Source: an uncultured Solirubrobacterales bacterium
GTDB taxonomy: Bacteria > Actinomycetota > Thermoleophilia > Solirubrobacterales > 70-9
Length of the DNA: 64,000 nucleotides
Direction: 5' to 3'
Assembly (NCBI GenBank): GCA_963720805.1
Contig: CAVRGT010000001.1
Location: 170,187 to 234,186, forward strand
Part shown: piece after piece, positions 23,201 through 23,393 of the stretch
Layout: each line of letters opens with the position of its first letter
Numbering within the stretch: the first letter of the stretch is position 1
Made by a program: the position numbers and the translations under genes
The notes under the pieces: generated by a model
The model's input: the letters and a program-made list of their open reading frames with translations, nothing else
What the model was told of the DNA's origin: nothing
Databases searched by the model: none

Positions 23201-23393
23201 GCGTCACAACGTCCCCTGCGTAACGACGATGACCGGCGCGACCGCCGCCGTGCGCGCGATCGCCGCCAAGATCGAAGGCAACCCCGAGGTCCGCTCCCTG
23301 CAGGAGATCCACGGCCTCCCGGGGCCGACGGGCCGCAAACGTGACATATCGACACGTTTGCGGCCCGTCGGCGGGGCCAAGCAGGCGCGATGA
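20234..23393 (+). CDS. carB: Carbamoyl-phosphate synthase large subunit; one apparent +1 frameshift before the MGS-like domain
   Basis: Two ATP-grasp halves are intact in ORF 20234..23182. The last domain ([16 protein letters not shown]...[20 protein letters not shown]...) is in the frame of ORF 22926..23393. The junction is ..ACC CAG C CTG CAC GAC.., with an extra C at ~22988-22989. Confidence 0.9.
23324..23372. repeat. Perfect 20+9+20 nt palindrome inside the last codons of carB
   Basis: GCCGACGGGCCGCAAACGTG-ACATATCGA-CACGTTTGCGGCCCGTCGGC. It is translated as ..[18 protein letters not shown].. before the ATGA overlap with the next gene. Confidence 0.85.

Follow-up and report, generated by a model that had tools for sequence, protein, structure and literature searches.

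The window analyzed here is the whole stretch of 64,000 nt and corresponds to C1:170187-234186 of the host genome (G000), which comprises 2.67 Mb in 13 contigs with 68% G+C. In this window the end of carB is directly followed by a fused pyrK-pyrD gene, the close relatives of which were all found in uncultured Solirubrobacterales MAGs. The features of the junction were as follows.

20234-23393, + strand: carB, present as two ORFs (20234-23182 and 22926-23393) that are split by one extra C at approximately 22987
23316-23393, + strand: tail of CarB downstream of the conserved EIHG, with 25 codons and TGA (relatives: 8 codons, LERAKQAR, and TGA)
23318-23375, + strand: CCCGGG, palindrome and GGG, 58 nt, the likely extent of the inserted DNA (93% match to G000:C12:351223-351280, another family A copy)
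23324-23372, + strand: perfect palindrome 20+9+20, 49 nt, family A copy (inverted-repeat search, nhmmer)
23390-23393, + strand: ATGA overlap of the carB stop (TGA, 23391-23393) and the pyrK start (ATG at 23390), intact
23390-25243, + strand: fused pyrK-pyrD ORF, 617 aa (ORF analysis)
23725-23775, + strand: perfect palindrome 21+9+21, family B copy, in frame in pyrK (inverted-repeat search, nhmmer)

The conserved end of CarB (EIHG) stops at 23315, and the same frame then reads the tail. The alignment with E. coli CarB (1a9x, 1073 aa) ran to EMHA at residue 1070, the counterpart of EIHG; because these are the last residues aligned to the solved protein, the extension starts where the known fold ends. 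Translation agreed with the initial annotation in that the CarB frame runs through the palindrome to the ATGA overlap with pyrK (25 codons, then TGA). The extra C (window positions 22985-22989) gives CAGCCTG here and CAG-CTG in the closest aligned relatives, and all relatives aligned at the frameshift were one base shorter (7/7). A consensus error in this bin is the probable cause, although the lesion may be real. The frameshift lies 330 nt upstream of the hairpin and leaves the frame of the tail unaffected. A correction at approximately 22988 had been expected to place a stop before the hairpin if the long tail were spurious; instead, removal of the C joins the 5′ ORF to the tail frame. On the sequence, the CarB tail would be translated. 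No obvious ribosome-binding motif was found just upstream of the pyrK start, either in G000 or in its relatives, so that translation of pyrK probably depends on termination-reinitiation at the ATGA.

The arms of the carB-end palindrome (23324-23343, GCCGACGGGCCGCAAACGTG; 23353-23372, CACGTTTGCGGCCCGTCGGC) were 100% complementary, as first described, and enclose a 9-nt loop (ACATATCGA). Perfect palindromes with arms of that length occurred twice in the 64-kb window, at the end of carB and in pyrK. By arithmetic, approximately 2 × 10^-5 perfect palindromes with 20-bp arms and loops of 0-30 nt are expected by chance per 64 kb, assuming a per-pair match of approximately 0.28 at 68% G+C. The loop of the pyrK palindrome was also found to be 9 nt long and its arms to be unrelated to those at the end of carB, as noted previously. 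The common loop length was rejected as a link between the two palindromes, which belong to two separate families with loop lengths that vary within each. The carB-end hairpin by itself folded at -43 kcal/mol, and the 131-nt stretch around it folded at -81.1 kcal/mol (z = -5.1 relative to shuffles). As read from the sequence, one of the six frames of the element contains a stop (TGA in GTGACA), and the frame used by carB is open.

Since the stem is long, G+C-rich and located at a gene end, the hairpin might serve for intrinsic termination or attenuation of transcription between carB and pyrK, and a terminator-type hairpin was one of two suggestions in the initial annotation. We consider this very improbable. 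The stem is followed by GGGGCCAAGCAGG, with no T-run, and a scan of 22800-24000 returned 0 terminator-like sites; furthermore, the hairpin lies within a reading frame, pyrK overlaps carB by ATGA, and relatives lack the hairpin at the junction. A promoter scan around the carB-pyrK junction found none, and a search of 22500-24500 against Rfam 15 gave only sub-threshold chance matches of miRNA hairpins, to the pyrK palindrome.

The carB-pyrK junction in related genomes

Junctions were measured from EIHG to an anchor position fixed within pyrK. The length was 77 nt, with CarB ending in LERAKQ(A/P)R and the ATGA overlap present, in 8 of 11 congeners and at 40 of the 78 Solirubrobacterales loci; versions of 74 or 80 nt with the same overlap were found at 13 more. 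The plain ATGA overlap was therefore present at 53 of the 78 carB-pyrK loci, mostly after LERAKQ(A/P)R. The hairpin had been placed in a former short spacer, but these 53 loci have no spacer at all. Because carB and pyrK overlap by ATGA in relatives, there was no ancestral spacer for the hairpin, and the element lies inside the last carB codons. The junction of G000 was 128 nt long, an in-frame difference of +51 nt (17 codons). Relatives read CT-GGAGC-GGGCCAAGCAG, whereas G000 reads CT-CCCGGG(49 nt)G-GGGCCAAGCAG and keeps the last five codons of carB (AKQAR), the stop and the ATGA overlap.

An independent bin, MFD05684.bin.2.28 (L018), carries a base-for-base match to the 49 nt at the corresponding site. 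Its right junction was 3 nt shorter and still in frame (VGPEQAR*), and a 26-nt tandem expansion of CCGACGGGG units was found to the left of the hairpin. These 9-nt units (L018, 903-1000) would encode (PTG)n, and the total as assembled was one base short of in frame. L018 lacked the pyrK palindrome. SMAG_U6047 (L161), a more distant bin assembled from short reads (k141), showed a family A hairpin with a consensus-type right arm at the carB-pyrK site; its right junction was in frame (VGGAKQPR*), and the locus ends inside the hairpin. Thus, the right junction was in frame in all three genomes with a family A hairpin at the carB site (3/3). The possibility that the tail is a conserved protein feature of relatives, also raised in the initial annotation, did not hold, since the family A hairpin was found at this site in only these two other genomes.

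The same two assemblies bear on whether the palindrome is an artefact of a long-read metagenome bin. The gene does carry a 1-base frameshift resembling a consensus error, and frameshifts were seen in other bins of the genus. However, the same 49 nt recur at the same site in the independent bin, a hairpin is present at that site in the short-read assembly, and copies of the family occur in many assemblies, so that an artefact is scarcely credible.

Identity of carB to that of G000 was 94.3% in G013, 94.0% in L026, 93.7% in L018 and 93.3% in G002. The family A hairpin was present at the carB site in L018 and absent in G013, L026 and G002, and such patchiness calls for precise loss, recombination or repeated insertion. 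As a route of precise loss, flanking 6-nt direct repeats (GGGGCC) were considered and rejected, given that their spacing was 52 nt and not 51 nt. The six bases to the left of the G000 core differ from those of relatives, and the "insertion" at carB could be a replacement patch, of approximately 56-58 nt for 5-7 nt. When filled and empty sites were compared at carB and dxs, several boundary readings were obtained, with 0-3 nt duplicated or with a replacement patch.

The hairpin core was 100% identical in G000 and L018, and their flanks differed by 6-15%. This identity exceeds the conservation expected of a neutral passenger; by arithmetic, the probability of zero changes in 51 nt was 0.04 to 0.0002 at these two rates of divergence. 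It is the main point in favor of a hairpin kept at the junction for a role in RNA or DNA, in which case the repeat would have been co-opted for protection of the carAB message from 3′ exonucleases, as a processing site, for slowing of ribosomes (carB:pyrK ratio) or for protein binding. The presence of the hairpin at the same place in the third, more distant genome (SMAG_U6047) and its very high stability (-43 kcal/mol) are consistent with such a role. The same applies to the long junctions: junctions of at least 122 nt were found at 13 of the 78 loci, and all 12 that were folded (11 with other hairpin types, and L018) gave stable hairpins. Nevertheless, the hairpin is absent at 53 of the 78 loci, including the nearest genomes G013, G002 and L026 (approximately 94% carB identity), and is therefore dispensable. 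Family A is also found at many unrelated sites, and covariation in its stem would be equally expected from a requirement for mobility. Overall, we regard a retained function at this junction as unlikely.

The carB-pyrK junction is a recurrent hairpin site. Unrelated hairpins were observed there in L022, L038, L043, L067, L071, L078, L047, L026, L084, L060, L053 and L088, often with the carB stop in the loop. The local end of carB supplied the arms in L026, L084 and L060, which have the form GC(A/G)GATGCCTG...CAGGCATC(T/C)GC. These hairpins of other lineages (GCAGATGCCTG...CAGGCATCTGC in L026 and L084; GCGGATGCCTG...CAGGCATCCGC in L060) lend some weight to a local origin of the G000 palindrome, by inverted duplication or template switching of the carB tail and without any repeat copy, as do its perfect arms, since about half of the G000 copies of family A have mismatches at three stem positions. 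Even so, a local origin is extremely improbable: the stem, loop and register match 28 other copies in G000 and hundreds in congeners, and the DNA of the CarB tail in relatives (CTGGAGCGGGCCAAGCAG) contains none of the arm sequence. Template switching may be the cause of the perfect arms in the carB copy.

Hairpin families A and B within and between genes

Searches with BLAST and iterated nhmmer found 29 copies of family A and 15 copies of family B in G000. A degenerate family A pattern matched 27 copies in G000 and 0-46 copies in 25 congeners (reversed control pattern, 0), and the copies in congeners amounted to hundreds in total. Copies of the family also occur in short-read assemblies. Beyond the stem, the family A loop (ACATATCGA) and its orientation were conserved. 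In an alignment of 27 copies, 86% of stem cells were paired and seven positions had changed on both sides; the covariation score was reached by 0 of 500 shuffles, and structures slid by 1-3 columns gave pairing of 22-41% only. Because these compensatory changes are family-wide, the conserved object is the hairpin. The three mismatched stem positions of about half of the G000 copies give them an orientation, and the carB copy has a symmetrized, perfect stem. Copies of family A start with GCCGAC, preceded by G/C-rich variable bases, and the unit consists of a 49-nt core (approximately 55-60 nt with the G/C flanks). Family B, with a unit of 51 nt, is a separate family of similar size. The suggestion of a REP-type hairpin now within a reading frame was thus well founded: family A is dispersed, has a conserved loop and a covarying stem, and occurs in congeners as well.

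Another large hairpin family was observed in G000. Its arms (25-29 bp) are variable and end in ...CAAAAC, and its 24-nt loop is conserved, as ACTCAAGCGAGGCTCCTGCCGAGC or the complementary sequence. Genome-wide, at least 15 copies with the 24-nt loop were perfect (e.g., C12:388043-388124, C1:122621-122700 and C3:100919-100996). The combination of variable arms and a fixed loop is unusual for a repeat.

As counted with a crude home-made codon-usage gene caller, at least 9 of the 29 family A copies and at least 4 of the 15 family B copies lay wholly inside long ORFs. Many of the remaining copies overlap a stop or start or sit 0-10 nt from both neighbors. With 80-90% of the genome coding, approximately 30% of copies in genes represents a deficit and not a preference, and the in-gene copies look like a tolerated minority.

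Net length changes were multiples of three at carB (+51 nt), dxs (+51 or +54 nt relative to 12 relatives, filled vs. empty), valS (+21 nt) and pyrK (+36 nt), and the ORFs run through the elements. The change in pyrK corresponds to 12 codons, and not to +51 nt, relative to relatives lacking the palindrome. The pyrK palindrome was common to the four closest genomes (G000, G013, G002 and G003), among which the stems were near-identical and the loops differed. Three of the element peptides fell between Pfam domains: residues 619-635 of DXS (DXP_synthase_N and Transket_pyr on either side), residues 503-519 of ValS (catalytic and anticodon-binding domains on either side) and residues 175-192 of the PabB/TrpE-like enzyme (its two domains on either side). 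The peptide in FolP followed the Pterin_bind domain. Three others lay inside a domain match, at residues 323-339 of the FolC-type ligase (Mur_ligase_C, 249-387), at residues 213-229 of the GT87 membrane protein (GT87, 89-326) and in the amidohydrolase (Amidohydro_1).

In-frame copies of both families were mostly in linkers or tails. At the ValS linker (G000:C3:115363-115411), three other genomes had other inserts at the same site, of 33-81 nt and different in each species (G005, G011 and G012; loci L105, L110 and L109, respectively), and this interdomain linker is a hot spot at which insertions are tolerated. Also in G000, a 981-aa ORF (C1:63834-66779) combines a polyprenyl synthetase domain with DXS through an Arg/Gly-rich join that is seemingly out of frame; it may be a fusion or another assembly frameshift.

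Taken with the junctions of relatives, these data make it highly probable that the carB palindrome is a copy of the dispersed, REP-like hairpin family A, and that it represents a net in-frame insertion in the tail of carB after which the stop and the ATGA link to pyrK survive. The ancestral gene ended in EIHG-LERAKQAR-TGA, with the TGA overlapping the ATG of pyrK. In the lineage of G000, a family A copy lies between the Leu codon and AKQAR and adds a net 51 nt (17 codons), open in the CarB frame. An insertion that shifted the frame or carried a stop would be expected to uncouple pyrK, and only an in-frame, stop-free copy would leave the expression of carB and pyrK intact. This coupling filter at the ATGA would explain why the in-frame copy at carB survived where most insertions in genes were lost. 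The tail peptide would be a passenger, with the nucleic-acid hairpin as the conserved unit. Ribosomes would have to unwind a hairpin of -43 kcal/mol, which may affect message stability.

A candidate partner nuclease

No match to the Y1/RAYT (IS200-type) transposase (Pfam PF01797) was found in G000 and 40 congeners (0 matches in the 41 genomes of the genus, of which 22 have a completeness of at least 90%; control genomes gave matches). One gene of a different type was bracketed by family A hairpins.

G000:C11:14218-15159: AbiEi_4 + DUF559 (PD-(D/E)xK) gene, 314 aa (Pfam matches over cut-offs)

A match of this gene to REase_MTES_1575 was below the Pfam cut-off. At C11:14187-15206 (locus L128) the gene stands between the two hairpins: one abuts the ATG, and the other holds the last codons and the stop. 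Nine AbiEi_4/DUF559 paralogues were found in G000 and 0-11 in congeners, and several of the G000 paralogues were flanked by other hairpin families. Six orthologues of the C11 gene were found in six other species (57-62% identity), all with family A hairpins, and the C11 protein and these six formed one clade (support 99/99). In G013 (C1:1462283-1463315), two family B hairpins bracket a DUF559 paralogue with two in-frame TGA codons; no DUF559-type gene flanked by family B was found in G000.

These observations raise the tentative possibility that family A, and likewise each sister family in the genus, is paired as a non-autonomous element with an AbiEi_4 + DUF559 nuclease of its own, the gene of which lies between two hairpin copies and the product of which may recognize, cut, spread or homogenize the hairpin. 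Such a RAYT-independent REP system of Actinomycetota would have by-products that include the translated hairpins in carB, pyrK, dxs, valS and other essential genes. We hold this model to be doubtful. The genomes G010, G014, G035 and G037 contain 12-27 family A copies, none of them beside a listed nuclease paralogue, which counts against a partner of this kind; the rule that a genome rich in family A always has a hairpin-flanked nuclease gene was broken by these four and rejected. No relevant paper was found in literature searches on palindromic repeats in Solirubrobacterales, or on DUF559 in connection with repeats or hairpins.

Comparison with known repeats

Rickettsia palindromic elements (RPE; Ogata et al. 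2000/2002), as described in a MITE review (PMC10969869), are dispersed palindromes that are often in frame in housekeeping genes and are translated at tolerated positions. The copies in carB, dxs, valS and pyrK resemble them in being inserted in frame, with a length change that is a multiple of three and no stop. They also resemble them in occupying positions compatible with the fold: the CarB tail lies beyond the 1a9x match, the copies in dxs, valS and the pabB-like gene lie between Pfam domains, and that in folP lies after the domain. On the other hand, RPE are approximately 100-150 bp long and belong to AT-rich, obligate intracellular alphaproteobacteria, whereas the elements described here are 49-51 nt long, have G+C-rich stems, belong to free-living, high-G+C soil Actinomycetota and in many cases sit exactly at operon junctions; there is no sequence relation between the two. 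The hairpin elements are an analogue of RPE and not a member, and RPE are the nearest precedent for the outcome.

Like the REP/REPIN of Proteobacteria, the elements are short, hairpin-forming and present in tens of copies, for the most part at gene ends; their imperfect stems give an orientation, their distribution is lineage-specific, and a candidate enzyme gene is flanked on both sides by repeats of its type. REPs are mainly extragenic, and a RAYT gene typically has its own REPs on its flanks. The recognition site of RAYT is a conserved 5′ GTAG/GGAG tetranucleotide beside the stem. In contrast, family A has no GTAG-type 5′ tetranucleotide, the 41 genus genomes have no Y1/RAYT gene, the candidate partner is an unrelated AbiEi_4 + DUF559 PD-(D/E)xK protein, and the copies are not strictly extragenic. 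MIRUs are small mycobacterial interspersed repeats between operon genes that preserve stop/start overlaps and translational coupling; they are direct, often tandem repeats and form small bridging ORFs. The likeness to MIRUs is one of placement only, at a junction with the ATGA overlap retained. Unlike a MIRU, the element is palindromic, has no direct tandem unit and extends the upstream protein. REP/REPIN are the closest for the type of repeat, and MIRUs are the closest for placement at coupled operon junctions.

Prokaryotic MITEs (Chunjie, ERIC, Correia; PMC10969869) are non-autonomous, form stable hairpins, and occasionally give in-frame fusions or insert in operons without disruption. In a MITE, terminal inverted repeats enclose an internal sequence, target-site duplications are present and a parent IS can be recognized (PMC10969869). 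The element here is almost all stem; the readings of its boundaries range from 0-3 nt duplicated to a replacement patch, and no parent IS was identified. The element departs in a defining property from RPE (size and host), from REP (RAYT) and from MIRU (direct tandem units).

Alone, the carB palindrome is of moderate interest; the genome-wide pattern to which it belongs, and the possible non-RAYT repeat system, add to this. Translated, in-frame palindromic repeats in housekeeping genes have been documented chiefly in Rickettsia; here, far smaller elements were found to have the same outcome in soil Actinomycetota that are free-living and of high G+C content, and no RAYT was found. The junction offers a clean comparison of filled and empty sites at a translationally coupled gene pair, and it would explain the persistence of in-frame copies only. 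For annotation, such elements account for unusual C-terminal extensions, insertions and gene "fusions" in bins of Solirubrobacterales, which might otherwise be taken for errors or for new domains. If the link to the nuclease is true, it would point to a second family of enzymes, unrelated to RAYT, by which REP-like repeats are maintained.
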